Shown: positions 5,535 through 51,729 of the stretch, one piece after another | Layout of the letters: each line of letters begins with the position of its first letter | Position numbering within the stretch: the first letter of the stretch is position 1 | NCBI RefSeq assembly: GCF_004010195.1 | Contig: NC_057758.1 | Span: forward strand, 6,472,650-6,536,649 | Direction: 5' to 3' | Source of the DNA: Chiloscyllium plagiosum | Lineage: Eukaryota | Length of the DNA: 64,000 bases | Program-made: the position numbers and the translations under genes | The notes under the pieces: generated by a model | The model's input: the letters and a program-made list of their open reading frames with translations, nothing else | Databases searched by the model: none | Told to the model about the DNA's origin: nothing

Positions 5535-6034
5535 NNNNNNNNNNNNNNNNNNNNNNNNNNNNNNNNNNNNNNNNNNNNNNNNNNNNNNNNNNNNNNNNNN
5601 NNNNNNNNNNNNNNNNNNNNNNNNNNNNNNNNNNNNNNNNNNNNNNNNNNNNNNNNNNNNNNNNNNNNNNNNNNNNNNNNNNNNNNNNNNNNNNNNNNNN
5701 NNNNNNNNNNNNNNNNNNNNNNNNNNNNNNNNNNNNNNNNNNNNNNNNNNNNNNNNNNNNNNNNNNNNNNNNNNNNNNNNNNNNNNNNNNNNNNNNNNNN
5801 NNNNNNNNNNNNNNNNNNNNNNNNNNNNNNNNNNNNNNNNNNNNNNNNNNNNNNNNNNNNNNNNNNNNNNNNNNNNNNNNNNNNNNNNNNNNNNNNNNNN
5901 NNNNNNNNNNNNNNNNNNNNNNNNNNNNNNNNNNNNNNNNNNNNNNNNNNNNNNNNNNNNNNNNNNNNNNNNNNNNNNNNNNNNNNNNNNNNNNNNNNNN
6001 NNNNNNNNNNNNNNNNNNNNNNNNNNNNNNNNNN
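5535..6034. other. Assembly gap (500 N)
   Basis: Run of N. Confidence 1.
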
Positions 6035-6688
6035 CCTGTTGAGCTCTCTGTCACATAATCATCATAAAATTGTACAGTTCTATAAGTGAGACATTTTTAC
6101 GATCGTGTATGTTCTGGTGCTGGAATGTGCTGTCCAGCTCGCCCCATTTGCCAGTATTATTTTGATCCCCCATCTAAATTAATTCCATTGAACTCCACAT
6201 GAAGCTCTCTTTTGAAACCTGCTGTTGAATGAGCCTCCGCCACTCTCCAAGCCAACGCATTCCAAATCCCAGCACCTATCTGGGTAAATAAGTTACAGAG
6301 ATATTGACTTTGGGATCATTCCATTCTTACGCGTGTCAAAATTGTCGATGGATTTTCACTCCCTGAAGGAAAGCTGCTTGGGTAACTCACAATTGCTCAC
6401 TCCAATGCCTCACAGTGAGATCGCACTTCTTAGTTGTCAGTAAACTGTACCAATATGAGGCTGGACATGGAGAACTGCACACAGTTCTGGATTGCACGAA
6501 CAATTATTGGAACACAGTTCAAGCAATATGTACCCTTACAACTCCAGGAATGTCTGGTTAGAACAGCAAGGGTGAAATCTGCAGTGTTCTGGCATTGTGT
6601 ATCTGAGTCAGGTGGCAGGTGAATGTCCTATCGCATCTGACTGTTAGCATCAACGAGTCTTTATTTTTCTTTTTATTTTCTCTCCTAG

Positions 6689-6810
6689 CGCCAATATTTT
6701 CATGTATTTTGGAAGGGAGTTACTGCAGCAGCGTACCATGTGAGAAGAGTATTTCAACGAGGGTTAACGGAATGTGCCCCATCTTACAAGTGTGTTGCGT
6801 ACGTTTGTGA
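6689..6810 (+). CDS. Beta-defensin exon 2 (mature peptide), paralog A; its exon 1 is not present in this contig
   Basis: Polypyrimidine acceptor ttttctctcctag|cg (phase 1). Encodes xPIFSCILEGSYCSSVPCEKSISTRVNGMCPILQVCCVRL* = C-x6-C-x4-C-x11-C-x5-CC. AATAAA at 6951-6956. Confidence 0.8.
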
Positions 6811-7094
6811 AATCGAAGAAGGAAAGAGCAACATGAAACAATGGAAAACATCTGTGTTTCTGATTGGAGAGTTCTGTCATCCCATCATTCAGGCTTCATG
6901 TTATTGTTTCAACTGAATGACCACTGGCCCACTGCTTTCTAAACTACATGAATAAAACTGGGTGATATTGCAAACATTGATTTTCCAAGTCTCACTTCAC
7001 TTTCATATCAATGTCTAAACACAATGTCAGGAAGGAAGGAAGTTGTCAGAAAATGGGTATTATGCATTGATGATCTTTGCACTGTCGTAGCTTA

Positions 7095-7880
7095 GCTGAC
7101 ATGTGGGGCTTTGGTGTGGCCACAACTGGAGGATCGTTTGCAGTTCAGGTCCCCACACCATAGGAAGGATGTAAACGCTTTGGAGAGGCAGGGAAAGTGG
7201 TTTACCAAGATGTTACTTGGATCAGAGTCTACTGGTTACCAACAGCCTTTTGACAAAATTTGGATTGTTCGTGGTCGGGATTTGGAGCTGAGAGGCGATT
7301 TGAAGGAAGTATATAAAACAATGAGGGGCTTGGATAGGTTGCCTAGCCGGACTCTATTGCCCAGGTTGGAAATTTATGGGCAATGTTTTAAGGTGGGGGG
7401 ACATGTTAAAATGATAAGCATGGGACAGTTTTTGTTCAACAGAGAGAGTTGTAAATGTCTACAAAGGATTGCCAAAGAAGGTGGTGGATTTGCATAGAAT
7501 AGCAAAATTGTCAGGCAATTAGATAGATGGAAGAACAGGCAATGTGTACAGCGTTATGGACCATGTGAAGGCAGATAGGATTAGTTTGGAATAGTACACT
7601 TGTCTTCACAGACATATTGCAGAACGGTTTGTTCCTGTGCTGTACGCTTCTCTCTTCAATTGAGCATTTTAGCTTCGGTGAGAGGCTGGATATAAACGGA
7701 TTGTTTTCATTGGATCAGAGACAATATTGGGCAGGCCTGTTTCATGTGAAGAGGTTCATGAGGTGCAAGAAAGAGTCAACAGTAAGCAGCTGCTTTCCTC
7801 AGTCCAATGAGGGGACACAATTGGGAATTGAAAAGCATACGATCCAGACGGGCGTTGAAGGTAATCTCCTAGCTGTTCTG
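7095..7880 (+). mobile_element. Decayed CR1 LINE 3' fragments
   Basis: LVWPQLED..QF.SPHHRKDVNALER, LRGDLKEVYKTMRGLDR. Confidence 0.8.
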
Positions 7881-8149
7881 AATCTCTGATCGAACAGACA
7901 CCAACAGCAGCCCGCGGACAACGTAATTGGCTCGTTGTCCACTATTTTCTTTGGGGAAGGGGAGCGTGATGTTCCATTCAGTGGGACGTTTTCCCATCTC
8001 CAATACATCACTCTCCAAGCTCCAGGACTGGAGGGGAGTTTGAAGGCGCACTGGGAAGTAGCAGGAGAGAAAATGTGCGCTGCTTGCTATTATACTACCG
8101 AGAGAACACCAGTCACGTCACTTCTTCAATCATCACAAAAGTAGATTTA

Positions 8150-8650
8150 CAGTCTCATATAGTGGCAGTGTAAGTCGGTGATAATGATAAGGTTGTGGGT
8201 GTGGATGAACTTGTGAAGACAGTACAAGTTAGTAGCAGTCACAATACCAGATGGCTGGCCGCAGATGTGTAGACACAGAAGAACAGCAATAATATCAGTG
8301 TTATGCAAATGGAGTTACTGTTGGAAATTAAGCAGATCAGTGATAACCACGGTAATGTGAGTCTCGTGTTAGCTGTAGAAACAGAGCAGGTCACTGGGAA
8401 CCATAGTATTGAGGGTCTGTAGTCAATTGCAGGGAATGTCTATGTCAGCGGTAACGACAGCACCTTGACTCTAGTTAATATGAATTTAAATGCTGTGGGA
8501 ATGGATTCACATGCAGATACAAAGCAGGTCACTGATAACCAGAGTGTTGTGAGGATCGAATCACATGCACAGATCGACCATATTAGGGTTGACCATAATG
8601 CTGTTGTTCAGAACCATGTAGATACAGAACAGTTCAGCGGTACAGTACAG
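8150..8650 (+). repeat. Degenerate ~54-bp minisatellite array
   Basis: agcaggtcactgataaccagagtg / gagcagatcagtgataaccacgg units. Confidence 0.7.
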
Positions 8651-8659
8651 ATCAGACAC

Positions 8660-11600
8660 TACAGATCCGGCAGAATGAGGAGAGGAAGTTAGAAAGAAAC
8701 TGAAGAGCAGGACTGCAACAATATTAATCTCTGAATAGCTGCCAGGGTGACATATTGGTGTTGCAAGGAATAGAAAGATAGTGGAGATGAATACTTGGAG
8801 AAAAAACTGATGCAACGGGCATGATTTTTTTGATCTTGGATCAATGGAAGCTCTCCTGCTGCCAGGGTGAACTGTAAAAGAGGCACTGATTGCTCCAAAA
8901 GTGGAGAGCAACCAATATCCTCGCTGCAACTTTCGCTCATACTACATGGGAGTGGTTAAACTAGACTGGCAGGGGATGCAATTACAGCAGCAGAACAACA
9001 AGTGGAGAGATTGACGGGAAGGCAGGTGCTAAGACCAGTGAATCAGAAAGAAATGACAAGCAGAGAGGGGTGAATGAACACAACAGCACTCATGGTCTAA
9101 CGTGTGTTCACATCAATATAAGTAGTATTAAATGTAAGACAAATCAGTTGTAGAGCCTGGATCAGTACATAAGACTAAGATGTTGCGCACACTGCAGATA
9201 CGTGGTTGAGAGAGGGAATGGAAAGGCTCCAGGATTTCGTTGGTTTAGTCGAGATAGAGAAGAAGGTAAAAGATGTGTAGAAGTTGTATTAGTAATCAGT
9301 CAGAATGTTACATCTTCACTCTGAGAGGAAATGCAGAAGGGCACATCCGTTGAGGCAAGAGGGGTAAAACTGAAAATTTAGGTGGGTGCAAACAATCTGC
9401 CAGGATCCTAACGTAGGAACTTCAACTGCAAATGGGAACAAATATGTGGCCGATTATGGAACGATTCGACAACAAAAGAATTTTCGTAATGGGTGACTTT
9501 AACTTCCGCAATATTCATTGTGACTCCCTTACAGCAAGAAATTGAAACAGAGTGGACTTCCTTAAATGCATGTAAGTGTGTTTATTGAAACAGTATGTGG
9601 ATAGCCCAACTGGCAGAGGGGCCATAGTGTAACTTGTATTGGCTAATGAGCCTGGTCAAGTGACTGACCTTTCAGTGGGAGAGCCTTTTGAAAACAATCA
9701 TCAAAGTTCGTTACGTTTTAAGACAGTTATGAGCAGGGAGAAGTCAGGACTTCCGGTTAGGTACAAAAATGGTGGAAGGTAATTTACATCAGCATGAGAT
9801 AGGAGCTAAGGAACTTTAATTGGGAGACACAGTTATCCGGCAAGACAACATTTAAACATGTGGGAATTTGTGAACATCTGGTGTGGAGACTTCTGGACCG
9901 ACATGTTCCAGGAAGGTGGACGGACAAAGGTAGCAAGGTAAGCGACATTTGAAAACGAGGGTGGCTGTGAATTTGTTCAAAAGAGAAAAAGATGCATGTG
10001 TAAGTTTTAGGAAGCTAAAATTGTACGGGCCAATGAATATTTTTTTGGAAAGCAGGTAAGTACTAAAGAGGGGAACAAGAGACCAAGAAGGGGCCATGAA
10101 ATGTCCTTGACAATTCAAGGAAAAGAGAATCCAAAAGAGTTCTATACATATATTAAGAATAGAAGTCTAACTCAGGAGAAAGTAGGACAACTCAAGAATA
10201 CAGGATGGCACTCATGTTTGGAGGCAGAGGATGCTTGAGTTCCAAAGTGAATAATTTGCATCACCATTCTCTCCGTAAAACGACATGGAGAATAGGGAGA
10301 TATGTGTGGAGCATGCCTATAGGCTAGAACATTAAAGAACAAGAAAGTGGTGGCGTTGGATCCCTTGAAGAGTATTAATGCATATAGCTTCGCAAGGCCT
10401 GATGATAGCAACTCCAGTTTATTCGGTGAAGGAAGTGAGGTGATTGCTCAGGCTTTGACCAAAAAAGTGGTCCTCTCGAACCACTTAAGAGATCCCCGAG
10501 GATTGGTGAGTAGGTTATGTTTTCCCCTATTCAAGAAGAGAAGTAGGGATAATCCAGGAAATTATCAGCGAATAAATCTCACATCAGTGGTTGGAAACTA
10601 TTGGAGTGAAATCATACGAATAGAATTTACGCACGTATGGAAAAGCATGACATAATTAGGTGGAGTCGACATAACTTTGTGCATTGCAGGTCATGCCTCA
10701 CTAAATTAATTGATCTATCTGACGAGGTCTCAAAGGTAATTGGTAAGGGTAAACCCGAGGATTTGCTTACATGGACTTTAGTTAGGCTTTCGACAAGTAC
10801 CCACATGGAAGACCCATTCTGAAAATTAAGATGAATGGTTTCCACGGGGACTTGGCCGCTTGGATTGACAATTAGGTTGTCCGTCGAAGGCAGAGAGTGA
10901 TGGTGGAATGGTGACTTTCCGGCTGGAGTTCCATGGCTAATGGTTTTCTCAAAAGATCCGTACTAGGACATCTACTATTTTCTGTTATATGTAGCTGAAT
11001 TAGATTAAATTTACATGAGTAGGTGAGTACGTTTGCAGATGATACAAAGATCGGTGGAGTTGTGGATAGTACAGAGTTTTGTCAAAGGATACTGGGATAT
11101 ATATATCAGTTGCAGTTATTGGCAGAGTAATGGCAGATATAGTTTAATCTGTATGAGTGTGAGATGCGGCAATTTGGGAGATCAAACCTTACGGAAAAGC
11201 ATGCCGTTAATAGCAGCACGCAGAAGAACATTGATGTATAGAAGGAACTTGAGATTCAAGATCTTTGCTCCCTGAAAGTGGCCATGCAAGTAAATAGGTG
11301 GTAAATTAGTCATATGCTGTGCTTGCCTTGACTGGTCAGGGAAATGAGTTCAATATGCCATGTTGCAGCTTTCTAGAACTTTGGTAAGACCACACTTCGA
11401 GTGCCACATTCAATTGCGGTCGCCACATTACATGAAGAATATGGTTGCTTTGGCGAGGGTGCAGATGAGATTTACTAACATGCGGCTTGGATTACAGAGT
11501 TTGATCGATAAGGAGAGGTGAGCAAAATCTCACATTGTTTTCCCTTAAAGAGAAGAGACTGAGAAAAGTCTAGATAGATGTCTGTAAAAATATGAGATGA

Positions 11601-11910
11601 CGAGATGGGGTTAACACACAGAATCATTTCCACAGAATAGAAAAGCTCTATGCTAAGAAGCAGAAGGTGAGGGTGAACGTTCACAGGAGACGTGGTGGGC
11701 AGGTGAGTAAAACAGAAAGTGGTAGGATTCTGAAATGTACTGGCAGGGATGGTAGTGGAGGCAGTAGCGGTTAGGGTACTTAGGGGACGTTTAGATAAGC
11801 ACATGAATATGTAACGAATGGAGAGATATGAAGCAAGGGCAGACATAAGGGATTAGTTCCGCTTGGTGTCATGTTCGGCACAACATTATAGTCTGATGGG
11901 CTCATTAGTA
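8660..11910 (+). mobile_element. Long decayed CR1 LINE (ORF1 3' end, endonuclease, reverse transcriptase, 3' UTR)
   Basis: VMGDFNF endonuclease motif, PLFKKRSRDNPGNYQRINLTSVVG, FADDTKIGGVVDS, LVRPHxEC; many stops. Confidence 0.85.
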
Positions 11911-11924
11911 TCTGTGAAGTTCAG

Positions 11925-14115
11925 TGTCCTATATCAGTGATAACAACAATGCAGCAGACAGAATCAAATTTACAGGCAGAGCAAATCAGACCAACACTCA
12001 GTCGTGTTGGACTGCAGTCAGATGTAATGACGAGCAGGTCGGGGAAACTACAGTGGTATTGTTCTGGAGTCAGATGTAGAGACAGAGTATGCCATTGGTG
12101 CTCACAGTGCTGTGGGTCTAGCGTCATAGAATGATACAGTTAAAAAACAGAAACTTTGCACCAACTCGACAATGCCGAAAAGATATCCGAAATTTATCGA
12201 ATCACTTTTGGCAGCATTTGCCCCATAAATGCTTCCGATTCAAATCCACAACCAGATGCCTTTTAAATTTTGTAGCTTGTGCAGTCTTTTACACATCATC
12301 CGGCAGTTCATTTCGTGCATGCACCATCCTCTAGGCGAAAGGAAGATGCCCCTCAGGTCTCGTTTAAATCGTTTTGCTCTCAGCCTGAAACAGTGGTTCT
12401 TTCGTTCGGTCTCGGCTACCGTGGAAAAAAGGCAAACACTATGCACCCTATCCATGCCCATCATGATATTTTAAACTTTTATAAGGTCACCCATCAGCTC
12501 CAGGAAACAGGAAGAATCAGCCTCTTGAGACGAATGTTCAATGACAAACCCGCCAAAAATGACGATGTACTTATAAATCTTTTGTGCTACACACAGGGCT
12601 GCGGGTTTGGAGTTACATACAGAGACAGATCAGACGAGTCGTAACTGCAGTTCTCTGGAATAGAATCACGTGTAGATTCACAGTAGATCAATGGTAGCCA
12701 CAGTGCTGTGTGTCTGGAGTCACGTATGGAGACAACTTAAGTCGGTGGAAATCACCGTGTTCAGCTCTGGAGTCACGTGCAGAAACAGAGTAGATCATTT
12801 CGAAGCAATTTTTTCCCACTGTTCTACTTGCTGAGACAGAGTTGGTCAATAATGCACTCAGTGCTATGGCCCTGTAGTCCCAGAGCAGGTCAGTCACAAC
12901 CACAGTGCTCTCAGTCTGAAGTAAACTGTGCAGACAGCGCGGGTGGGTACTGACCACAATTCTGTGGGTTGGAGTCAAATGCAGGTGCAGTGCAGATGAG
13001 TGGTAACCAAAGCACTATGTGTTGGGACTTATAAGTAGAGAAGGAGCAGGTCACTGGAAACCATATTGCGGTGTGGCTTGACTCGCATTTATCGACAGAG
13101 CAGTTCAGAAATGACACTTATGCTCTCCTTCTGGTGTCACACGTAGAGCTAGTGTCGAACAGTGGTACCCACAGTGCTGTGGGTTCAGAGACACAGAGAC
13201 AAAGCAGATAGTGGTAACGACGATGCCGTGGGTCTGGAGTCACGTACTGAGCAGTTCAGTGGTCGTCACCATGCTGTGGGTCTGGAGTCACATTAAGAGA
13301 CAGAGAAGATCAGTATATTGACAGTGCTGTTGGTCTGGAGTCAGATTAGTGATAGAGCAGATTAGGGATAAACAGAGTGTTATGGATCTGGAGTCACATA
13401 TAGATTGTGCAGTTGACTGATAACCACGGTGCTTTTGCTTTGGAGTCAAATCCAGAGTGAAAACAGGTCAGGGGAAATCATTGCGCCGTTGCTCTGGAAA
13501 GAGATGTTGAGACAGAGTAGATAAGTAGTACCCATAGTGACGTGGATCTGCAGTCATAGTTCATAGAAATGTACAACATAGAAACAGAACCTTTCGTCAC
13601 CCATGACGATCAGATCGCCGAAATTTATCGAATCACATGTGCCAATATTTGGTCCATATCCCTCCAAACCCCTCTTATTTAAAATCTCACTCAGATGTCT
13701 TTTAAATGTTGTAATTGTAGCAGACTCCAACACTTGCTCCGCCAATTCATTTCATGGTCGCACCACACTGTGAGTGAAAAACATGCCATATCCGTTTGAA
13801 CTCCAATAACCTGGGGTAAAGACATGGACTATTCACCATACCCATGCCTCCCATGCTTTTATAAGCTTCTGTAAGGTTCCGCCGAAGCCTCTGACACTCC
13901 AGAGAACAAAGCAACATCAGTGCCGCGATGTGTCTGGAGTCATATGCAAAGGAGAAACGTAGTATTGGGAACCACAATGATGTGGATGTGTCGTCGCGTA
14001 TACAGACGCAGAATGTCAGTGGTAATCACAGTGCTGGGAGGCAGGCATCACTTGGTGAGACAGAATAAGGGGTAGTAAACAAAATGCTGCCGTTCTGGAG
14101 TCAATTGCTGACAGA
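11925..14115 (+). repeat. ~54-bp minisatellite array interrupted by minus-strand CR1 3' fragments (~12125-12510, ~13555-13910)
   Basis: ggagtca anchors at 13236, 13284, 13337, 13390 and 13442. Confidence 0.8.
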
Positions 14116-15120
14116 TATCCGTCCCTCAGAATTATTCGGGGATTCTGAGGAAGTTTCCCACAATGACCTTCAGGAGATTACCATTAAGCAACTATTCCTG
14201 CCACAATTTTAATGAATTCAAATTTGTCCATCTGTCTCAATGCCATTCGAATCTACATCTCATAAGGTTTTCAGTGAAACGTCTGAAGGAGCTCAGCACG
14301 TTTTGTTTGTTCCCTACATCATAATGTTACAAGAAGACATGTCACTCGTATTCACGCCAGAGGTTTTAGACCAATAACACAGATTCTACAAGGGAGTGAA
14401 TGAATGAAAACTGGATTGGTAGGGGGCATTTTGCAGAAAATTTTCAAGGCAGCAAAAGCAATGCTGGCTTCAAATCTTGGGACTGCAAAATGAGGGCACA
14501 GAAGTTCTGGTTCGATTTCACAAAGCTCTGCTAACGCACGATTGGGATTACTGTGAGCAGATATGTGAACCGGATCTCCAGAAATGTGATATTGACATTG
14601 GAGCAAGTAAATTGCATGCGACAAGAATGATTTCTGCACTTCATGAGTTACGTTATCAGGAGGCCTGCATTCTCTTTAATTTAGAAGGTTAAGGGATGAC
14701 CTAATTGATGTGTTCAATGGGTGATCAGTAAACGGCAGTGTATACAAAAATATTGTGATGTAGGTCCATCGAGTCAATTACGACCCTCTGAAGTACATCC
14801 GGACCAGACGACATCTTCAGCCTCCCCCTTTACACTTGGATTCCCCATGGATAATCCAACAATGCAGTCCATCTCCAAAATGTGGGAGGGAACCAGAGAA
14901 ATCAGAGGAAAGCAAACAATTATGAGGTGAATGTGAAAACTCCACACAGTCAGTTGTGCATTCGTGAAATCAAGTCTGTGTCCTGGTAGTGTGAGACAGT
15001 AATGCTAACTACTGAACTATTGTGCTGCGTAATGAACGAATCTGAGGTGATGTCAATATTCTTGCGGGCTGACATGATATAACATAATATAATACAATAA
15101 CAAAATATAATGATATAATA

Positions 15121-15331
15121 TGGATGTCGGTTTGCTCGCCGAGCTGGAAGATTCGTTTCCAGATGTTTCATCACCATACTAGGTAATATCTTCAGTGAGC
15201 CTCTGAATGATTCTTCATTCGGAGGCTCTCTGAAGATGTTACCTAGCATGGTAACGAAACGTCTGAAAACGTCAGCGAGCAAACCTATATCCAGAATGTC
15301 AACCTGAGCTACAAACGTTCTCAAGACTCGC
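15121..15331 (+). mobile_element. Second-family Penelope-like palindromic insert with a hammerhead-like core (15230-15263)
   Basis: Inverted arms ~15121-15210 and 15213-15292; CTGAAGA-t-GTTACC-tagcat-GGTAAC-GAAAC-GTC; inserted in an (ATAAT)n tract. Confidence 0.65.
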
Positions 15332-15418
15332 CCTGATACAATTTAATGATATAATATAGTATAATGTAATATGACATGACATAATGTAAGACATAATGTC
15401 ATATGACATGACATAATG

Positions 15419-15742
15419 GTGGGCGGCACGGTGGCACAGTGGTTAGCACTGCTGCCTCACAGCGCCTGAGACCCGGGTTCAATTCCTGCCTCAGGCGACT
15501 GACTGTGTGGAATTTGCACGTTCTGTCCATGTCTGCGTGGGTTTCCTCCGGGTGCTCCGGTTTCCTTCCACCGTCCAAAAGATGTGCAGGGTCAGGTGAA
15601 TTGGCCATGCTAAATTGCCCGTAGTGTTAGGTAAGGGGTAAATGTAGGGGTATGGGTGGGTTCCGCTTCGGCGGGTCGGTGTGGACTTGTTGGGCCGAAG
15701 GGCCTGTTTCCACACTGTAATGTAATCTGTAATCTAAAAAAA
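15419..15742 (+). mobile_element. Young full-length HE1-like SINE
   Basis: A box tggcacagtgg, B box ggttcaattcc, LINE-derived 3' end gggccgaagggcctgtttccacactgta and a taatct/A tail; near-identical to the 37281 copy. Confidence 0.9.
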
Positions 15743-15799
15743 TAAGGTAATATAATATAACAAAATGTTACCTTCTTTATTTCTCCAGTTTTGACCTCC

Positions 15800-17480
15800 T
15801 CATCTGAGGAAGAACGTTCATGGAGTCAGTTCATTAAAGGTGCACCAAACTGATTCCTGAGTTGGTGGGACTGTTCTATGAAGAACGATATGATCAGTTT
15901 GGATCGTCTTCACTGTGGCTCGGACTTAAGCGGCAGAGAGTGGGAATTCTCAGAAAATCAGATCATGACCTCATTGGATTGCAGAACGAGGCTCGAGGGG
16001 GCTGAATGTCCTGAATTTAATAAATTCTAATAAGACTATGTTGGTTGAAAGCAGAAAAGGGTGTTCCCGATAACCAAAGGACTTCTGAACCAAATGGGGT
16101 CTCAGTCGAAGGCAAAGACGTTAGGCCATTTTCGACTGAGGAACGGGAAGTTTCCTGTCCAAGTGAGTAGGGAGACTATTGAATTATCTACTGCTGAAAG
16201 CAGTGAAGGAGAAAACATTGACCTTTTTGTTTGAAAATAGTTTGATATGGTTCGTGGAGCTCAATTGATCAAAGTGTACGGGGATAAAGCAGTAACAGGG
16301 ATTGTGTTGAACGATCAGCCAAGGTCACATTGAATGGTGTAGCAGTCTCGAATGGTTGAATGGTTTATTCCTGCTCATAGTTTCTATGTTTCTCTGTGAA
16401 ACCAATAAATCTGTGATTCATTCGTGAAAGGCTGAATAACTTAGTTCCAAGCAGACAGAATGGCAACCGACAATCAATCTGTTCCACGAAAATGGTAAAT
16501 ATTTGACAAGATGAAATAACATTCTGGCAACATTAGGTGGAAGTTTCAGAAACTAATAAAAAGTGACATAGCAAGTGGACAGCTTTGACTAGGTACATCA
16601 TTTAATGTCTGTTAACGGAGGAAGGAATAATATTCTGTTTCATCTCGTTCGTATGTCAGCAATAAGGGATTGATGCGTGTAAGATTGTCAGCAAGAGAGG
16701 TGGGAGTGAGAAGAAAAAAGCAGGGATGCACTTCTGAGGCTTTATAAGTCTCCAGTCGGATTAGACCACATTTTGACTATTGTGAGCGATTTTGGTCCCA
16801 TACGTCAAGAACAATTATCTCAGGAATGAAAGGATTAACATGTGGGGAACGTGTTCGGACTATAGGTCTGCATAGTGTAGAGTGATGCGGCTGGTGGGGT
16901 GGGGGTTGGGTGGGCGATCTCATTGAAACGTAAAGAATATTGAATGGCCGGAAAAGAGTGCATTTTGGGAGATGTTTTCATTTGCAGGAGAGACCAGAGT
17001 CGGAGTGTACAGGCTTAGAGTGAAGTGAAGACTCTTTACCGCGGAGATAATAAAATATTTCATTAGCCACATCATTGTGAATCTGTGGAATTCATTGCAA
17101 CAGGAGCCTGCCAAGTTCAGGTCATTGAATATATTTAAGAAAGAGATTGATAGGTTCACCATTGTTAATGGGATCAAGAATTACTGGGAGAAGGCGAGAG
17201 ATTTTTTGAGAACCTTACCAGCCATGGTTGAATGGCAGAGCAGACTCGATGGTCTCAATTTCTGCTGATTTGTCTTCTGGTCTTATGTTCCTTATCATCC
17301 ATTTCTTCCAGAAAATTGGAAAATTACATTATATGAGAAGATACGGAGACAAATATGACACAACTCTAGTTAGCTTAAATTCTGTCATTTCTAACATGTT
17401 AGATTCTATTACAAAGGAAGTAACAGCAAATACTTTAAACATTGACAATATCGTCCTATACACTCGGCACCAATTTAGAG
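15800..17480 (+). mobile_element. Cluster of decayed CR1 LINE fragments
   Basis: Repeated CR1 3' motifs such as VNLWNSL..FKKEIDRF and ctcgaatggttgaatgg tails. Confidence 0.7.
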
Positions 17481-17902
17481 TAGATTTAGTGGTAATGTCA
17501 TATGTGTTGTTATACACTGAAAAGTGTTGTTTTCTGTGCCATACAGAAAGGTCATACCACCAAAGAACAGTACAGTAACATAACAGAGTGCAGATTTCAA
17601 AGTTCAGCTTCAGACCAGCATCAGAGGAAACTTAGCATGAGAATTTCAGAGGCCTGCTTAGAGGTATGTTAGTAAAGTATAAAACGTTGTTCTTGAATCT
17701 GTTGGCACGTGAATTAAACATTTTAATATTCTGACCGTCGGAATAGGATGGAAGGTAGTATAACCTGGGCAATAGAGTCAAAATATTTGGGTATTTATAT
17801 TGCTAAGTTATTACAGAATAATCGACTTAACAGGAAAACAGATTATTGCTCAGAGTGTGCAGTTCAAAGTCGATCTCTGTTGTGGTACTGCAGTCATGTG
17901 TA

Positions 17903-18032
17903 TTCCTGATGAAGGGCTTTTGCCGGAAATGTCAATTTTACTGCTCCTTGGATGCTGCCTGAACTGCTGTGCTCTTCCAGCACCACTAATCCAGAATCTG
18001 GTTTCCAGCATCTGCAGTCATTGTTTTTACCT
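17903..18032 (+). mobile_element. Right half of a palindromic Penelope-derived insert (left half deleted; intact homolog at 51483-51725)
   Basis: ttcCTGATGAagggcttttgccgGAAATGTC...gcatctgcagtcattgtttttacct. Confidence 0.75.
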
Positions 18033-18039
18033 AGTTCAA

Positions 18040-20265
18040 TAATCAATGCCCTGACTAATGAAGGCGCGTGTTCCAAAAGCCCTCTGCACTGCCCTGGCTA
18101 CCTGTGACTCCACTTTCAGAGAACTGTGCACCTGAAATCCAAAGTCCCTCTGTGGCAATCCGTTCCTTAAAGCCCGACTATTCACCATGGAACACAGACC
18201 TTGATTTGACTTTCCAAAATGCAAGACCACACACGTATCTGTATTAACTATTATTTGCCATTTCTTGGCCCACTTCCCAAGATATCAAAGTTCTGCTTCC
18301 ATTTCTGACAATCTTCCTCACCTTCCACCATACATTTTTTTATTTTAGTGCCGTAGAACTTTGAACATGAAACAGTACAGGCCTTCTGGCCGTCAATGTT
18401 ATGTGAAACCCATCTGAAGCCCAATCAAACTCCACCATTTCAGTTTCCTCCAAATGAAAACGCAATGACAATTTAAATGCCTTTAAATTTGGTGAGTCCA
18501 CTATTATTGCAGGAAGTGCATTCCACGCCCCTACTACTATCTGAGTGAAGAAACTCACTCGGGCATCTGTCCTTTTTCTGCCAACCTTCAATTTACAGCA
18601 ATGCCCCCTCGTGCGAGCCAACACCATCTGAGGATAAACAAAGCATTCGCTGTCCACACGATCCAACCCTCTGATCATCTTATAAGTCTCTACCAAGTCC
18701 CCCTGAATTCTGCTCAGCAAGGAAAACAGCCTTAAGTCCCTCAGACTTTCTTCGTAAGACCTTCCCTCCATACGAGGCAGCATCCTCGGAAATCTCCTCT
18801 GAAACCGTTCCCAAGCTTCTACGTTTTTTCCAATAATGCAGTGACCAGAACTCTCCATAATAATCCAAGTGCGGCTGCAAAAGGGTTTTGTACCCCTGCA
18901 GCATGACCTCATGGTTCTGAAACTCAATCCCTATACAAGTAAAAGCTAACAATCCATATGCCTTCTAAACAACTGCATCAACGTGTGTGTCAACTTCCAC
19001 GGATCTATGTACATGGACACCGAGATGTCTCTGCTCATCTACACTACCATAAGCTGAGAACTCTGCATTGCTATTGCTCCTTCCAAACTTAAACACCCGA
19101 CAATTTTCCGCATTAAATCCATTTGCAACTCTCAGCCCAGCTAGGCAGCGGACCTGAGAGCCTCTTAAACCAACAACATTCTTTTCCACTATCCACAACT
19201 CTAAGGAAGGTAGAGTCATTAGCAGTTTTAACAACCCATTCTTCTGGGCCGTAATGCAGGTCGTTTATAAAATGGCAAGCAGCAGTGGACATAAAACAAA
19301 TCCTTCATGAAAAGCGCTAGTAAATGAACTCCAGGATGAACAATTCCCATCAACCTCCACCCTCTGTCTTCTTTCAGTCAGCTAAATTCAGATCCAGACC
19401 GCTAAATCACTCCCAATCACATGCCTCTGTATTTTGCACGGTAGGGCACCTGGTTAAACGACTTATTTAAATTCATATGCACCACACTAACCACTTTCCC
19501 CTCATGCACCTATTTTGTTGCCTTCTGAAAGAACTCAATCAGGTTTGTGAGGCACGGCCTATCTTTCACAAAGCCCTGTTGACTATCCTTATTCAGCTTA
19601 TTCCTTTCCAGATGATTATGCATCGTCTCTCTTATAACCTTTTCCAACATATTAACCACAACCGAAGTCAGGTTCACTGGTCTCTCATTCCCAGAGTAGT
19701 CTCTACTCCCCTTCTTGTCCGGGGAAAAACATTTTCTATCCTCCAATCTTCTGGCACTGTACCGGTGGAAAATGATGACATAAAGATTAAAACCAATCTC
19801 CTTCCTGCCTTCCTAATGATTCCTATGATAAATCTCATCCGGCCCAGCGAGCTTATCGATTTTTACATTTGTGAGAATTGCTAACACCTCCTCCTTGTGA
19901 ACCTTAATTTATCCAGACTCGTAGACTCCGTAGCAGTATTTTCCTCAATAACATCATCTTTGTCTGCTGTGAATACTGTCAAAAAATACTCATTTTGCGC
20001 TTCCCCTATCTCCTTGGAATTCACGCCGAACTTCCCAGTACTATTCTTGTTTGGCCCTAGTCTGACGATCATCATTCTTTTATTCCACGGATAATGAGAG
20101 ATAGCTTTAGGTTTACCTTTGATAATATCCGCCAACGACATCTCGTGTCTCCTCCTGGCACTTCTAATCTATTCCTTTAGTTCTTGCTTTGCTAATTTGG
20201 AAATCACAAGTGCCTTAACTGAACATTCACATCGCATTGCAACGTAAGTCTTTTTCTTCCTCTCG
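18040..20265 (-). mobile_element. CR1 LINE reverse-transcriptase fragments (two pieces)
   Basis: Minus ORFs ...RIQGDLVETYKMIRGLDRVD...VVGAWNALP, RPVNLTSVV, QQGFVKDRPCLTNLIEFF; tail at ~18354. Confidence 0.9.
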
Positions 20266-32855: not shown

Positions 32856-33803
32856 ATTTTAATTCTATTAGTGCAATGAAAGGTATATCGGTTTGCCTGA
32901 TCTTAGAGTAGGATCAAAGGCTGGCACAACACCGAGGACTAAATGCCTTTACTGTTTTGTACTGTTCTATGTTCTTTATTTCGGCTTGAAATCTCACAGA
33001 CTCTGGAAGGTTATTGGGAGATGTAATCGAAGGTTCGGATTACTAACAGGGAAAGATAAGATATATAAGAACAAACAATGTGCACAAGTTGATGTTGAAT
33101 TCAAATATGTGCTGGTACAAAATCACGGAATTCGCGCCCTCGGGTCATTGTGGGTAAACTGCAACGTATGGATTACTGCGAATCAAGAAGGCAGTTCACC
33201 ACCACATCCTCACAGAGACCACACGGGTTGGGCATTCAGTGTTTTCCCCCAACCAGAGATGTCCACATCATAGTCTGAGAACGAGGGTCAGGCAATGCAG
33301 GAAAAATGACAGAATGCACTTCTACACTAAAACAGTTCTGGAGATTTGGAACTCTCACACTCAAATGCGTAGCGATGCTAATTCAATTGTTACATTTAAA
33401 TGTGAGATTGATCACTTTCATTGAGGCAGAGGAGCAAGGGATATGGTCCCAAGCCTTGCATATGGAGTTGTCATACAAATTAGACATGATCTTCCTGAGT
33501 AGCTGAACAGACGCAATGTGCCAAATCGCCTATTCCTATACCTACATACTTGTGAAAAATTGACTTCAATCCTCGACATTTCACTCATTACTCGTGCCCT
33601 TAACTCTGCTCGCTTTATGATGTAAGCGTTAAGGAGATATTTCCAATTTTTCATGACAATTACTGTCAGTCTGAGTTAGTGATCTACACCTTATTAGAAC
33701 GTAAAGTGCAGCCAGTCGCCATTGTATCAGTAATTGATACCACCAGTGTAAGCTGTGAACCCATAAAGGGAGGATGATCGTTTCTTCTCTCATAACCACA
33801 ACG

Positions 33804-33867
33804 ATGATGTTGGCGACCCTGTTATTCCTACTTGGAAGCCTGGTATATATGGAAGCCACCACAATTG
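33804..33867 (+). CDS. Beta-defensin exon 1 (signal peptide)
   Basis: MMLATLLFLLGSLVYMEATTI plus G|GTAAGT phase-1 donor; CATAAA at ~33762; alternative in-frame ATG at 33774. Confidence 0.7.
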
Positions 33868-34130
33868 GTAAGTTTTACTTTTTGTCTCAGTTGTAGAGGT
33901 TTTTTAATCTCCGCTTTCGCAAACATGGGAAGCATGACTTGGAACAGCAACTGACGAGTTCTTCCGATGTATGCTGCCATCTGTGTGTCTCATATGTGTC
34001 TATTCCGTCAGAACATACTGTTTTTGTCATCTTGGAAGAGAAACAAATTTTGCTAAGACTGAACAAGTCACTCGTCAAAGCACTGGTGGAATACTATAAG
34101 TAACGGTGGGCATCTTATCTCAGGAAAGAT

Positions 34131-35724
34131 CATAAGATCGGAAGACCACAGAAATTGGGCCATTTCGCCCAGTGAGTGTGCTCTACCATTCAAACACGGC
34201 TGGTAGAGTTTTCAACCCCATTTTCACGCTTTCTTCCTGTAAATATTGATCACCTTCGCAACCAAGAAACTAACTATATCAATCTTATATATACTAAATG
34301 ACCTGACTCCATGAACTTCTGTGGCAATGCATCCCATAGATTCAACACTCCTTATCTCGAAATGTTTATGTTTATCTCCATACTAAGAGTTCTTCCCTAC
34401 ACTCAAAGGTTGACTCCTCGATTCCTCGTTTTTTTCTGCCAATGGAAAACTCTTCTACATTCCACTTTGTCCAGGTCTTTCAGTCTTCTGAAAGTTTCAA
34501 TCAGGTATAAGTGATTGTTCTGAACTCCATCGAGTTCAGTCCCAGAGTACGCAAATTTCCTTAAATGTTAAGTCTTTCATTCCTCGAATGACTCTTGTGA
34601 ATACCTTCCAGACCGCTGCAGAGCCAATACATCATTCCTGAGGGATGGAGTCCAAACCTGTGCACAATACTCCAACTGTGGAATGACCAGATTTACAGTG
34701 CGTCAGATGTACATCTATGCGTCTTTTTTTCTCGTCTTTTGAGATGCTTGAAAACATTCTGATTACCAACTCAACTTGCACGTTTACCTGAAGAGGATCA
34801 TAGACCAGGACTCGAAGTCCCTTTGAACTTCATATTTCTGAATTTTCTCCCCATTTAGAAAATAGTCCATACTCCTACACGCTCTCCTAATCTCTAAACA
34901 TGTTTGAAGCCCCCATGTCTCCTCAATTTTAACAGCCCCCCTACTTATCATTGTCTCATCTGCAAACTTGACCAGAATGCTCTTAGTTGTTTCATGTTGA
35001 TGGCTAATATATGAAGTGAAAACCTGTGGTCCTAACACTGAGCTTTGTGGAAAGCCACTGGCCACGGGTTTCTTTTCTGTTTTTCTCCCACTTTCTGCGT
35101 TCTGCCAGACAGTCAATTTTCGATACATGCTCGTTCCTGGCGTTTGACAACATCCGGCCATTTCCTACTATGTTGCTTCCTTTGGCATCTTATCAAAAGC
35201 CTTCCGGAAGTGGAGATAGACAACATGGATTGGCTCTCCTTGGTCTAACCTTCTCTGTGCCCCCTCACAAAATTAAAAAACCCCTTGATAAAACAATACT
35301 GAGTTAGCCCAGTTTTGTGATGCATTTCTAAGTATTCAGAATTCTCGCCCTTCAGAATGCATTCCAAAATCTGACCATTGACTGAAGTCAGGTTTTTCAT
35401 TCTGTAATTTCCTGTCTTTCTCCCTATTCCCTTCTGAAACAGCGGTTTAACATTAGTAAGCTTCCAGTATTCTACGAGTCTCCCTGAATTTAGTGACACC
35501 ACCGAGATCACGATTAAAGGCTCCACTGTCTCTTCACTTATCTGCTTCAGAACCGTGGGACGGAGCCCATCTATATCAGGTAATTTGCCCATTTACAGAT
35601 TTTCCATTTTTTTCAGCACCTTCTCCTTGTTGCTGGCCACCGTCCTAATTTCTGCTGTCCACCCCCACCCCCCAACGATGTTAGTCACCGTTTTCACAGC
35701 AGAGACTGATGCAAATTACTCATT
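34131..35724 (-). mobile_element. CR1 LINE nested in a plus-strand CR1 fragment (~34030-34130 and ~35842-36260), inside the defensin intron
   Basis: WKLTNVKPLFQKG..GNYR..NLTSV, PQSSVLGPQVF, KFADET. Confidence 0.85.
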
Positions 35725-35841
35725 CATTCTGAAGGGCGAGAATTCTGAATACTTAGAAATGCATCACAAAACTGGGCTAACTCAGTATTGTTTTATCAAA
35801 GGGTTTTTAAATTTTGTGAGGGGGCACAGAGAAGGTTAGAC
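35243..35841. repeat. 117-bp inverted duplication (35243-35359 and 35725-35841)
   Basis: Arms differ at 2 positions. Confidence 0.95.
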
Positions 35842-36279
35842 TTTGTTTCCAGTCGAAGCAGAATTTGAGGAATCCTGAGAAGATCACGGAACTGACATCA
35901 GCTATGCAGAGATTGAGTAGGACAGGATAATATTGGTGGGAGTTGAGAAGAGTGAGATCTCAGCTTGCTGAAACATGAAAGACTCTTAGAAAAAAATATT
36001 CAGTGGAGAACAGGAGATATTGCTTACCTTTGTGCAAGAATTGTGGACCAGAGTGCATCAGCTCTGAATAAAGTGTAGCCCATTTAAGTCGGCATCGAAG
36101 AAGGTCATCTTCTTTTGACCGGCATTGAAACGGTGAAATTCTTCAGCATAGAGTGCATTTTCATTCAGTACGTTTATGGGTGAGGTTGACAGATTTCCAG
36201 TCAGGATGGGAATCGAGCAATTATCCAGGAGTTGTAGGAAAGGGAAGTGGAGATGATCAGCTCAGTCGTGACACCAGAT

Positions 36280-36815
36280 GCACACATCGTTTTACATTCA
36301 AACATACTTACGCAGACCTTCTTGCAGATACACACTCTCTTTCAGACACACATGTGCAGATACACAGACACACACACACTCCCCTCTCTCCCACCCACAC
36401 ATACATGCACACACACGCTCTCTCTCACGACCTCGCTCCCTCACATGCACACAGAAACACACAAAAATCGATGGGGTGATTTCTTTTTTAAATACAACCT
36501 TTAATTCTCTCAGGAATACAACTTGAAAGAAGTTCTGGGATTTACATATTAAGGAATCTGAACCCGCAGCCCCATTCTAAAAGACAAAAGATTGAACAGC
36601 AATCTCTGTTTGCTTAATATATTGCATATGTGTATGAAATATTGATATTTTGCTCTAAATGTTACTGTGTCCTATAATCCTACTCGACGAGATATGCAAC
36701 AAAGGAGCAGCACAACCCGGTTGCACTTTCAAATAAAACTGTTGAACTATGAATTGATTTCGTGCGATTTTATATAAAAAAAATGTCCACCCCAGTCAAA
36801 TATCAGCACTGACAT
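36280..36815 (+). mobile_element. Decayed Penelope-like 3' fragment with a (CA/CT)n tract
   Basis: gttctgggatttacatat...aaataaaactgttgaactat...tgtccaccccagtc matches the reverse complement of 1-112. Confidence 0.55.
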
Positions 36816-37232
36816 ATCATCAAATCGAAGAGCAAGTTTGACTGGCAAAACGGCCGCCTTCTGCACATCCAATTCCTTGTCCAGTGTCTGCAAATGGATG
36901 CAGGTTGAAAAACTTCGTGGAATCTGAGTTTCTCCAAGTGGGAATTCTGTTCTCGACGCGTTATTAGTGAGCTGGCATAATTGATCATGACTCAAGACGT
37001 CTGTTCTCTGAGGTCGTGTGCCGACTCACAGATATCAATCTCATTTAATCCCGGTCTTGAAGCATCCTTCCTTATCGATATCTGTTGAGTTCGCTGTCAC
37101 ATAATCATCATATAATTGTACAGTTCAAATAGGACATTCTTACAATCGTGTATGTCCTGATGCTGGAAAGTGCTGTCCATCTCGTCCCATTCGCCAGTAT
37201 TATTTTGATGCTCCATCTGAATTCATTCCATT

Positions 37233-37604
37233 GTGGGCGGCACGGTGGCACAGTTGGTGGGCGGCACGGTGGCACAGTGGGTGGGCGGCACGGTGGCACA
37301 GTGGTTAGCACTGCTGCCTCACAGCGCCAGAGACCCGGGTTCAATTCCCGCCTCAGGCGACTGACTGTGTGGAGTTTGCACGTTCTCCCCGTGTCTGCGT
37401 GGGTTTCCTCCGGGTGCTCCGGTTTCCTCCCACAGTCCAAAGATGTGCAGGGTCAGGTGAATTGGCCATACTAAATTGCCCGTAGTGTTAGGTAAGGGGT
37501 AAATGTAGGGTTATGGGTGGGTTTCGCTTTGGCGGGTCGGTGTGGACTTGTTGGGCCGAAGGGCCTGTTTCCACACTGTAATATAATCTAATCTACAAAA
37601 CAAA
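37233..37604 (+). mobile_element. Young HE1-like SINE with a triplicated 24-bp 5' head; absent from copy A
   Basis: Units start at 37233, 37257 and 37281; empty site ttccattg|aactccacat at ~6190. Confidence 0.9.
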
Positions 37605-38102
37605 AACTCCACATCCAGCTCTCTTTTGAAACCTGCTGTGGAATCAGCCTCTGCCCCTCTCCAAGGCAACGCATTCCAAATCCCAGCACCTCTCTGGTTA
37701 AATAAGTTACAGAGTTATTGACTTTGGGATTGTTCCATTCTTACGCTCGCCAAAATTGTCGAAGCATGTTCACTCCCTGAAGGCAAGCTGCTTGAGTACA
37801 TCACAATTCCTCACCCCAATGCCTCATGTGAGAACGCACTTCTCAGTTGTCAGTAGACTGTCCCAATATGAGGCTGGATGTGGAGAACTGCACACAGTTC
37901 TGGTCTGCACGAACAATTATTGGAACACAGTTCAAGCAATATGCACCCTTACAACTCCAAGAATGTCTGGTTAGAACAGCAAGGGTGAAATCTGCATTGG
38001 TCTGGCATTGTGTATCTGAGTCAGGTGGCAGGTGGATGTCCTATCGCATCTGACTGTGAACATCAACGAATCTTTGTTTTTTCTTTTTATTCCCTCTCCT
38101 AG

Positions 38103-38224
38103 CGCCAATATTTTCATGTATTTTGGAAGGGAGTTACTGCAGCAGCGTACCATGTGAGAAGGGTATTTCAACGAGGGTTAAAGGACTTTGCCCCATCTTA
38201 CAAGTGTGTTGCGTACGTTTGTGA
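38103..38224 (+). CDS. Beta-defensin exon 2 (mature peptide), paralog B
   Basis: Acceptor ttccctctcctag|cg. Encodes APIFSCILEGSYCSSVPCEKGISTRVKGLCPILQVCCVRL*, in phase with exon 1. AATAAA at 38366-38371. Confidence 0.85.
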
Positions 38225-40089
38225 AATCGAAGAAGGAAAGGGCAACATGCAACACTGGAAAACATCTGTGTTTCTGATTGGAGAGTTCTGTCATCCCATC
38301 AATTCAGGCTTCACGTTATTGTTTCAACTGAACGATCACGGGCACACATCTTTCTAAACTATGTGAATAAAACTGGGTGATATTGCAATCATTGATTCTC
38401 CATGTCTCACTTCACTTTCCTATCAATGTCTTCACACAATGCCAGGAAGGAAGGAAGTTGTCAGAAAATGGGTATTATGCATTATGATCTTTGCACTGTT
38501 GTAGCTTAGCTGACATGTGGGGCTTTGGTGTGGCCACAACTGGAGGATTGTTTGCAGTTCTGGTCGCCACACCACAGGAAGGATGTAAACGCTTTGGAGA
38601 GGCAGGGAAAGTGGTTTACAAAGATGTTACTTGGATCAGAGACTACTGGATACCAACAGCCTTTTGACAAAATTTGGATTGTTCGTGCTCGGGATTTGGA
38701 GCTGAGAGGCGATTTGAAGGAAGTATATAAAACGATGAGGGGCTTGGATAGGGAACCTTTTCGGACTCTATTGCCCAGGTTGAAAATTTTTTGGGCAATG
38801 TTTAAGATGGGGGGACATGTTAAAATTATAAGCATGGGACAGTTTTTGTTTAACAGAGAGAGTTGTAAATGTCTAGAAAGGATTGCCAAAGAAGGTGGTG
38901 GATTTAGATAGAATAGCAAAATTGTCAGGCAATTAGATAGATGGAAGAACAGGCAATGTGTACAGCGTTATGAACCATGTGAAGGCAGATAGGATTAGTT
39001 TGGAATAGTACACTTGTCTTCACAGATATATTGCAGAAGGGTTTGTTCCTGTGCTGTACACTTCTCTCTTCAATTGAGCATTTTAGCTTTGGTGAGAGGC
39101 TGGATATAAACGGATCGTTTTCATTGGATCAGAGACAATATTGGGCAGGCCTGTTTCATATGACTTTGTTTATGAGGAGCAAGAAAGAGTCAACAGAAAG
39201 CAGCTGCTCTCCTCAGTCCAATGAGGGGACACAATTGGGAATTGAAAAGCATACGATCTAGAACGGCGTTGAAGGTAATCTCCTAGCCGTCCTGAATCTC
39301 TGATCGAACAGACACCAACAGCAGCCCGCAGAAAACGTAATTGGCTCGTTTTCCACTATTTTCTTTGGGGAAGGGGAGCGTGATGTTCCATTCAGTCGGC
39401 AGTTTTCCCATCTCCAATACATCACTCTCCAAGCTCCAGGACTGGAGGGGAGTTTGGAGGCGCACTGGGAAGTAGCAGGAGAGAAAATGTGCGCTGCTTG
39501 CTGGTATACTACCGAAAGAACACCAGTCGCGTCACTTCTTCAATCATCACAAAAGTAGATTTACAGTCTCATGTAGTGGCAGTGCAAGTCAGTGATAATG
39601 ATAAGGTTATGGTGTGGATGAACTTGTGAAGACAGTACAAGTTAGTGGCAGTCACAATACCAGATGGCTGGCCGCAGATGTGTAGACACAGAAGAACAGC
39701 ATTAATAACATTGTTATGCAAATGGAGTTACTGTTGGAAATGAAGCAGATCAGTGATAACCACGGTAATGTGAGTCTCGTGTTACCTGTAGAAACAGAGC
39801 AGGTCACTGGGAACCATAGTATTGAGGATCTGTAGTCAATTGCAGGGAATGTCCATGTCAGTGGTAACGACAGCGCCATGACTCTGGTTAATATGAATTT
39901 AAATGCTGTGGGAATGGAATCACATGCAGATGCAAAGCAGGTCACTGATAACCAGAGTGGTGTGAGGATCGAATCAAATGTACAGATCGACCAGATTAGG
40001 GTTGACCATATTGCTGTTGTTCAGAACCATGTAGAAACAGAGCAGTTCAGCGGTTGTGGGTCTGGAGTTATACAAGGAGAAACTACATA

Positions 40090-43000
40090 TTCGGCAGAAT
40101 GAGGAGCGGAAGTTAGAAAGAGACTGAAGAGCAGGACCGCAACAATATTAATCTCTGAATAGCTGTCAGGGTGACATATTGGTGTTGCAAGGAATAGAAA
40201 GATAGTTGAGATGAATCCATGGAGAAGAAACTGATGCAAGGGGCATGGTTTTTTTGGATCTTGGATCAATGGAAGCTCTCCTGCTGCCAAGGTGAACTGT
40301 AAAAGAGTCACCGATTGCTCCAAAAGTGGAGAGCAACCAATATCCTCGCTGCAACTTTCGCTCGTACTACATGGGAGGGCTTAAACTAGAGTGGCAGGGG
40401 ATGCAATTACAGCGGCAGGACAACAAGTGGAGAGATTGACGGGAAGGCAGGTGCTAAGACCAGTGAATCTGAAAGAAGTGGCAAGCAGAGACGGGTGAAT
40501 GAACACAGCAGCGCTCATGGTCTAACGTGTGTTTACATCAATAGAAGGAGTATTACCGGTAAGACAAATCAGTGTAGAGCCTGGATCAGTACGGAAGACT
40601 AAGATGTTGTGCACACTGCAGATACGTGGTTGAGAGAGGGACTGGAAAGGCTCCAGGATTTCGTTGGTTTAGTCGAGATAGAGAAGAAGGTAAAAGATAT
40701 GTAGGGGTTGTATTACTAATCAGTCAGAATGTTACATCTTCACTATGAGAGGAAATGCAGAAGGGCACATCCATTGAGGCAAGAGAGGTAAAACTGAAAC
40801 ATTAGGTGGGTGCAAACAATCTGCCAGGATTCTAACGTAGGAACTCCAACAGCAAATGGGAACGAATATGTGGCCGATTATGGAAAGATTCGACAACAAA
40901 ATAATTTTCGTAATGGGTGACTTTAACTTCCCCAATATTCATTGTGACTCCCTTACAGCAAGAAATGGAAACAGAGTGGACTTCCTTAAATGCATGTAAG
41001 TGTGTTTATTGAAACAGTATGTAGATAGCCCAATTGGCAGAGGGGCCATAGTGTAACTTGTATTGGCTAATGAGCCTGGTCAAGTGACTGACCTTTCAGT
41101 GGGAGAGCCTTTTGAAAACAATCATCAAAGCTCGTTAAGTTTTAAGACAGCTATGAGCAGGGAGAAGTCAGGAGTTCCAGTTAGGTACACAAATGGTGGA
41201 AGGTAATTTACATCAGCATGAGATAGAAGCTAAGGAACTTTAATTGGGAGACGCAGTTATCCGGCAAGACAACATTTAAACATGTGGGAATTCGTGAAGA
41301 TCTGGTGTGGAGACTTCTGGACCGACATGTTCCAGGAAGGTGGACGGACAAAGGTAGCAAGGTAAGCGACATTTGAAAACGAGGGTGGCTGTGAATTTGT
41401 TCAAAAGAGAAAAAGATGCATGTGTAAGTTTTAGGAAGCTAAAATTGTACGGGCCAATGAATATTTTTTGGAAAACAGGTAAGTACTAAAGCGGGGAACA
41501 AGAGACCAAGAAGGGTCCATGAAATGTCCTTGACAATTCAAGGAAAAGAGAATCCGAAAGAGTTCTATACATATATTAAGAACAGAAGTATAACTCAGGA
41601 GAAAGTAGGACAACTCAAGAATACAGGCTGACACTTATGCTTGGAGGCAGAGGATGCTTGAGTTCCAAAGTGAATAATTTGCATCACCATTCTCTCCGTA
41701 AAACGACATGGAGAATAGGGAGATATGTGTGGAGCATGCCTATAGGCTAGAACATTAAAGAACAAGAAAGTGGTGGCGTTGGATCCCTTGAAGAGTATTA
41801 ATGGAGATAGCTTCGCAAGGCCTGATGATAGCAACTCCAGTTTATTCGGGGAAGGAAGTGAGGTGATTGCTCAGGCTTTGACCAAAAAACTGGTCCTCTC
41901 CAACCACTTAAGTGATCCCCGAGGATTGGTGAGTAGGCTATGTTTTCCCCTATTCAAGAAGAGAAGTAGGGATAATCCAAGAAACTATCAGCGAATAAAT
42001 CTCACATCAGTGGTGGGAAACTATTGGAGTGAAATCATACGAATAGAATTTACGCACGTATGGAAAAGCATGACATAATTAGGTGCAGTCGACATAACTT
42101 TGTGCATTGCAGGTCATGCCTCACTAAATTAATTGATCTATCTGACGAGGTCACAAAGGTAATTGAGATGGAAATGTGTTGCTGGAAAAGCACAGCAGGT
42201 CAGGCAGCATCTAGGGAACAGTAGAATCGACGTTTCGGGCATTAGCCCTTCTTCAGGAACCAGACATTCCTGAAGAAGGGCTAATGCCCGAAACGTCGAT
42301 TCTACTGTTCCCTAGATGCTGCCTGACCTGCTGCGCTTTTCCAGCAACACATTTCCATCTCTGATCTCCAGCATCTGCAGACCTCACTTTCTCTACAAAG
42401 GTAATTGGTAAGGGTAAACCCGAGGATTTGCTTACATGGACTTTAGTTAGGCTGTCGACAAGTACCCACATGGAAGACTCATTCTGAAAATTAAGATGAA
42501 TGGAATCCACGGGGACTTGGCCGCTTGGATTGACAATTGGGTTGTCCGTAGAAGGCAGAGAGTGATGGTGGAATGGTGACTTTCCGGCTGGGGTTCCGTG
42601 GCTAATGGTTTTCTCAAAAGGTCCGTACTAGGACATCTACTATTTTCTGTTGTATGTATATATATATAAATATATATATATATACATATATCAGTTGCAG
42701 ATATTGGCAGAGTAATGACAGATATAGTTTAATCTGTATGAGTGTGAGTTGCGGCAATTTGGGTGATCAAACCTTACGGAAAAACATGCAGTTAATAGCA
42801 GCACGCAGAAGAACATTGATGTATAGAAGGGACTTGAGATTCAAGATCTTTGCTCCCTGAAAGTGGCCATGCAAGTAAATAGGTGGTAAATTAGTCATAT
42901 GCTGTGCTTGCCTTGACTGGTCAGGGAAATGAGTTCAAAGTTCAATATGCCATGTTACTTTGGTATGACCACACTTAGAGTGCCACATTCAATTGCGGTC

Positions 43001-49392: not shown

Positions 49393-49439
49393 CAGCGAAT
49401 GAACAATCGATATATTTCACTTATACTTCATCCCATTCA

Positions 49440-51725: not shown

Positions 51726-51729
51726 AGGT

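Follow-up and report, generated by a model that had tools for sequence, protein, structure and literature searches.

A predicted two-exon gene for a beta-defensin-type peptide in a large tandem defensin array of Chiloscyllium plagiosum

As two small exons separated by more than 4 kb of repeat-rich DNA escape a search for long open reading frames, we asked whether such a pair in the genome of Chiloscyllium plagiosum forms a beta-defensin gene and, if so, how its peptide might act. The pair lies on the forward strand of a stretch of 64,000 nucleotides (nt) from NCBI RefSeq assembly GCF_004010195.1 (contig NC_057758.1, positions 6,472,650 to 6,536,649), hereafter the window, where an original prediction had read it as a functional, possibly unannotated beta-defensin gene. 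On the sequence evidence, the two exons are an intact gene for a predicted secreted six-cysteine peptide of beta-defensin type. Leader exon, GTAAGT donor, phase-1 intron, pyrimidine-rich acceptor and 61-residue product agreed base for base with the prediction, the frame being open through the joint to the TGA stop, and the CATAAA and AATAAA motifs were found at the expected places (Table 1). Scanning the whole intron on the plus strand returned 38102 as the sole acceptor in which pyrimidines fill at least 16 of 18 positions. The predicted start at 33774 is a real in-frame ATG. However, as it is so close to the start of CATAAA, given the usual spacing between a TATA box and the start of transcription, it probably lies upstream of the transcription start and hence outside the mRNA, and the likely start codon is the ATG at 33804, with a second ATG at 33807. 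Paralogue L031 has no in-frame upstream methionine, and CATAAA also precedes the signal exons of the distant paralogues L053 and L059. The exon 1 product reaches 2.76 in 9-residue Kyte-Doolittle windows and was judged by hydropathy to be signal-peptide-like.

The six cysteines end in CC with the spacing 6-4-11-5-0, and the net charge (K+R minus D+E) is +2, both as predicted; the peptide is thus cationic, at the low end. With the search pattern widened to admit 11 residues in the C3–C4 loop, the six-cysteine pattern occurred twice in the window and in none of 100 Markov-simulated windows, which argues against chance. All six cysteines are invariant in 31/31 aligned exons, and the peptide fits the beta-defensin pattern C1-x6-C2-x3/5-C3...C4-x5/6-C5C6. 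As its C3–C4 loop of 11 residues exceeds the 9–10 of the avian motif (PMC11874394), we class it as a beta-defensin variant. The loop has 11 residues in all but one of the 14 aligned members of the window peptide's clade, the exception having 12. An AlphaFold2 model of the exon 2 peptide has three strands and a predicted local distance difference test score of 81.7. ESM Atlas returned Defensin_beta clusters only, and a fold search placed human beta-defensin 2 at Z 3.5, where Z gaps below 1 are ties; these model-based searches favour beta-defensins, but weakly. Two results weigh against this identity: a search with the Pfam profiles PF00711 and PF13841, a check that the original prediction had proposed, gave no match for the 61-residue peptide, and it went undetected when solved structures were searched by sequence. 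Among 16 clade members, one matched the Pfam defensin profiles, at E 0.023. Searches of protein collections gave no homologue among the candidates, consistent with a gene that is possibly unannotated. A big defensin was considered and rejected, as only five residues separate the exon joint from Cys1, there is no hydrophobic N-terminal domain between the signal and the cysteine-rich region, and the intron has no other strong acceptor. Overall, gene structure, cysteine framework, linkage to Pfam-positive defensins (below), ESM Atlas and the fold search support the predicted beta-defensin identity.

The splice between exon 1 and exon 2 is supported, rather than demonstrated, by comparison between paralogues. 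Twenty genomic stretches were fetched, 5 chosen with both exons already on one contig and 15 chosen from one exon. Both exons were in order and on one strand in all 5 preselected stretches; among the other 15, BLAST found the partner exon in 7 (two only partial) and not in 8; in two of these 8, a pattern scan picked out a signal-like exon along with CATAAA and GTAAGT. The same pairing is seen in paralogues as distant as ~40% identity, paralogue introns measure ~0.3 to 4.2 kb, and promoter, exons and intron of the window gene have collinear counterparts in L041 at ~93%. At L059:2316-6868 (C97408), a pair of exon-1 copies precedes a pair of exon-2 copies spaced by 754 nt, a layout that could permit alternative pairing or stem from nested duplications or misassembly.

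The original prediction had taken the locus for a singleton, but it belongs to a set of many recent duplicates. The window sits on scaffold C49 (9.98 Mb) of the 3.56-Gb assembly, whose dozens of scaffolds range in size from over 130 Mb down to 10 Mb, as would fit an elasmobranch karyotype. Searched against the genome, the exon-2 peptide gave 51 matches at E ≤10 (38 at E ≤0.001) and a query of promoter plus exon 1 gave 29, counts that are lower bounds and may include alleles on some unplaced contigs. Thirteen of the 51 fall on C49, spanning 0.84–8.87 Mb, and most others on small unplaced contigs; a separate search added two further clade matches on C49. Many copies are broken by stops (internal in 13 of the 51 exon-2 matches), frameshifts or the loss of cysteines, acceptors or donors; the donor GT is gone in 4 of 19 exon-1 loci, two of which are overlapping cut-outs of one contig. 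Heavily broken exon-2 relatives with 77% DNA identity (L086–L088; C49:7.01 Mb, C97847, C92901) were missed by the protein search. The exons read fall into at least six subfamilies, 38–95% identical to the window peptide, with net charges from −1 to +5: subfamilies A–C range from −1 to +2, B and C having C-terminal tails, and charges climb to +4 to +5 in the sister subfamilies D and E. The best candidates for direct killing are more cationic subfamilies of the clade (+1 to +5) that have Gly-Gly ahead of Cys2: L042–L044 and L046 (C49:6.09 and 6.27 Mb, C96693, C100438) and L056 (C8:79.8 Mb).

A second six-cysteine family (L061–L083), with spacing 6-4-10-5-0, is interleaved with the window clade over most of C49, where 9 of its 78 matches lie, and passes PF00711 in 3/3 members tested. 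It is 18–31% identical to the window peptide; the cysteine columns align, the C3–C4 loop is one residue shorter, and in the tree it falls on the opposite side of a 100/100 branch from the window clade. In both families the phase-1 acceptor stands 14 nt before Cys1 (29/31 exons). The best explanation of these data is a large tandem array of defensin genes whose evolution proceeds by birth and death, with segmental duplication of some copies and death of others, and the comparisons place the window gene in a divergent, Pfam-invisible beta-defensin clade within this very large cluster. Within the second family, L079–L081 (C97606, C101307, C8:50850230-50850430) form a subfamily in which Trp-Pro follows Cys1 and Cys4 lacks a preceding Gly. 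Weak matches resembling them (query 4–37, open frame 68–70) are scattered across C7, C8, C23, C32, C38 and unplaced contigs, which suggests a dispersed, possibly repeat-carried expansion. L062 (C101976), L082 (C46:4.31 Mb) and L083 (C49:7.72 Mb) are defensin exons on long branches; one has a seventh cysteine and two lie off C49, adding loci beyond the main cluster.

The ratio of nonsynonymous to synonymous divergence (dN/dS) was 0.26–0.59 in all 14 comparisons of the window exon 2 with other subfamilies, with dS of 0.75–1.29. Three intact close copies showed 7/366 coding differences compared with 178/2,666 flanking differences (p 1e-4, which is optimistic as the copies were picked for intactness and share one reference). 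Three broken copies carry 9, 9 and 10 differences per 122 exon-2 positions. Exon 1 is not better conserved than its flanks (63/832, 13 loci); its 64-nt length and open frame are kept in 17 of 19 complete paralogous copies. These comparisons indicate that the family is under coding constraint. The prediction of a functional gene is thereby borne out for the family, by dN/dS and exon conservation, in a way that does not extend to this particular copy.

How might the peptide act? We think it fairly probable that it is a host-defence peptide that combines modest surface binding with chemokine-like signalling, encoded by a two-exon gene of a divergent clade in a tandem array. Exon 1 would provide a signal peptide cleaved near the exon joint, and exon 2 a peptide of ~40 residues that would fold as a sheet of three strands stabilised by three disulfides; by analogy with the family, these would be C1–C5, C2–C4 and C3–C6. 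Secreted at an epithelial surface, the peptide would serve host defence there, probably through a modest attachment to microbial surfaces that hydrophobicity drives, together with chemokine-like signalling, rather than through strong electrostatic lysis. As the body of elasmobranchs is salty and rich in urea, the low charge and a grand average of hydropathy of 0.76 make strong electrostatic lysis unlikely. Mammalian epididymal beta-defensins, beside the ovodefensins of birds, provide a precedent for another role, and the same gene and fold might instead yield a peptide of the reproductive tract, serving the sperm coat or the protection of oviduct or egg case, or a receptor ligand that does little against microbes. 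We consider this unlikely, although the expansion is large and young, subfamilies A–C are low in charge or neutral, B and C carry tails, and ovodefensins are described as recently duplicated and as altered in cysteine spacing (PMC9363672). Against it stand the charges of sister subfamilies D and E, and +2 is inside the ordinary range of fish and bird beta-defensins. The charge does not mark a non-lytic role, because sea bass BD1 at +1.8 (PMC8231796) is similarly low, as is AvBD12 at +1.28 (PMC11874394). The original prediction had drawn a signalling or reproductive role from the long loop and the low charge; this argument is weak, as the 11-residue loop is clade-wide and the charges of the paralogues vary so widely.

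Other explanations concern the copy or the fold. The window gene could be a recent duplicate that is silent, a passenger not yet decayed in an otherwise real family, as the copies are ~91–95% identical over kilobases and so many relatives are broken. This is less probable still: all elements of the window gene are intact, and it does not differ from L002 at any exon-2 coding position (0/122) whereas the downstream flanks differ at 38/510, pointing to selection or gene conversion since the duplication. The peptide might also be a defensin-fold toxin or enzyme inhibitor, akin to crotamine, platypus defensin-like peptide (DLP) or cnidarian peptides, or belong to a convergent, unrelated six-cysteine family. 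However, with gaps below 1 the Z scores of the fold search do not prefer such folds, the acceptor position is common to the interleaved Pfam-positive beta-defensins, and ESM Atlas yielded no other kind of cluster, so that we regard this explanation as very improbable.

A second exon 2, overlooked in the original prediction, lies within a segmental duplicate elsewhere in the window (Table 1). No exon 1 for this copy was found within the 64-kb window; the assembly gap at which the duplicate starts may hold it. The intron of the window gene holds an insertion of ~370 nt that, because it is missing from the in-window duplicate, L041, L002 and L007, is younger than the duplications. The rest of the window is largely interspersed repeat, and its list of open reading frames of at least 150 residues contained no convincing gene. 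Short elements at 42165-42361 (95%) and 51483-51687 (89%) are near-perfect self-inverted repeats with relatives at 60711-60906, and by this structure resemble miniature inverted-repeat transposable elements. Decayed repeat copies, which we take to be of the long interspersed nuclear element (LINE) type, lie at 18340-18930 (minus strand), 11674-14403, 23058-26034 and 53129-55714; a 196-residue frame in LINE-like material gave 10 protein matches at 36–65% identity.

Table 1. Predicted features of the gene and of its partial duplicate in the window (positions of the window; UTR, untranslated region)
Feature	Position	Strand	Remarks
TATA-like CATAAA	33762..33767	+	42 nt upstream of likely start codon 33804
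Upstream in-frame ATG	33774..33776	+	Starts 12 nt past start of CATAAA
Exon 1, coding part	33804..33867	+	21 codons + 1 nt; hydrophobic, signal-peptide-like
Phase-1 intron	33868..38102	+	4,235 nt, GTAAGT...polypyrimidine-TAG, rich in repeats
Exon 2, coding part	38103..38224	+	Six-cysteine mature domain; TGA stop 38222-38224
Putative 3' UTR	38225..38371	+	Ends in AATAAA 38366-38371, 142 nt past stop
Second exon-2 copy	6689..6810	+	Intact-looking, 3 amino-acid differences, net charge +1, same acceptor
AATAAA of second exon-2 copy	6951-6956		
Segmental duplicate of 37082-53132	6036..19441	+	Self-BLAST, ~92–96% identity in main blocks; carries second exon 2
Assembly gap, 500 N	5535..6034		Duplicate starts at gap

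The beta-defensin family itself is well known, and one more gene adds little by itself; the larger result lies in the cluster with its Pfam-invisible clade. It is possible, if doubtful, that this is among the largest vertebrate beta-defensin repertoires, with about a hundred loci and a 10-Mb scaffold largely theirs, and that near-neutral, hydrophobic members of the Pfam-invisible clade have given up electrostatic killing in favour of an action that withstands salt and urea, or of reproductive signalling. If so, jawed vertebrates would ancestrally have had the two-exon, long-intron layout, and the small set of three-exon genes in teleosts would be derived. If expressed, the genes would bridge the big defensins of invertebrates and the beta-defensins of bony vertebrates, document a massive, independent expansion of the family in the cartilaginous-fish lineage, and offer a source of peptides adapted by evolution to seawater and to tissue rich in urea. 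Most human beta-defensins are inactivated by salt (PMC6805989). The fish antimicrobial peptide section (section 14) of a 2019 review (PMC6795676) names no shark or skate defensin. Our search, which covered the top-ranked entries of the larger result sets, found no paper on cartilaginous-fish defensins; subscription journals, common for fish immunology, were mostly outside it, and supplements of genome papers may list such genes.

Among known systems, no sequence link was found between the window peptide and ovodefensins (gallin, 2mjk) or the toxins crotamine (1h5o), platypus DLP (1b8w) and Ueq 12-1 (5lah). The closest likeness is to vertebrate beta-defensins (PF00711; human beta-defensin 2, 1fd3, and beta-defensin 3, 1kj6; mallard AvBD3, 7lzl; penguin spheniscin-2, 1ut3), which have a signal-peptide exon and a phase-1 intron just 5' of the cysteine-rich region (PMC7203481). 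The window gene shares both, and with them the six cysteines ending in CC, G-x-C before C4, a three-stranded model and clustered genes with birth and death. It differs in falling below Pfam detection, in a model without N-terminal helix, and in the extent of the array, ~8 Mb here compared with 66–200 kb for the avian cluster (PMC11874394). In birds, CTSB and TRAM2 flank the cluster (PMC11874394). Here, in exon-wise searches that miss genes, both of two matches to the CTSB-type propeptide (PF08127) were on C9, and none of 14 matches to TRAM/LAG1/CLN8 (PF03798) was on C49, a scaffold that may be an unjoined piece. Cathepsin-B-type propeptide exons at C9:579039-579244 lie near the end of C9. Compared with the teleost beta-defensins BD1 and BD2 of sea bass (PMC8231796), the precursor is of similar size, 61 residues here and 63–66 there, with a signal of ~20 residues in both. 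However, teleost genes have three exons, short introns and up to ~7 members per species (PMC8231796), whereas here there are two coding exons and dozens of loci, and the 4.2-kb intron of the window gene is as in mammals.

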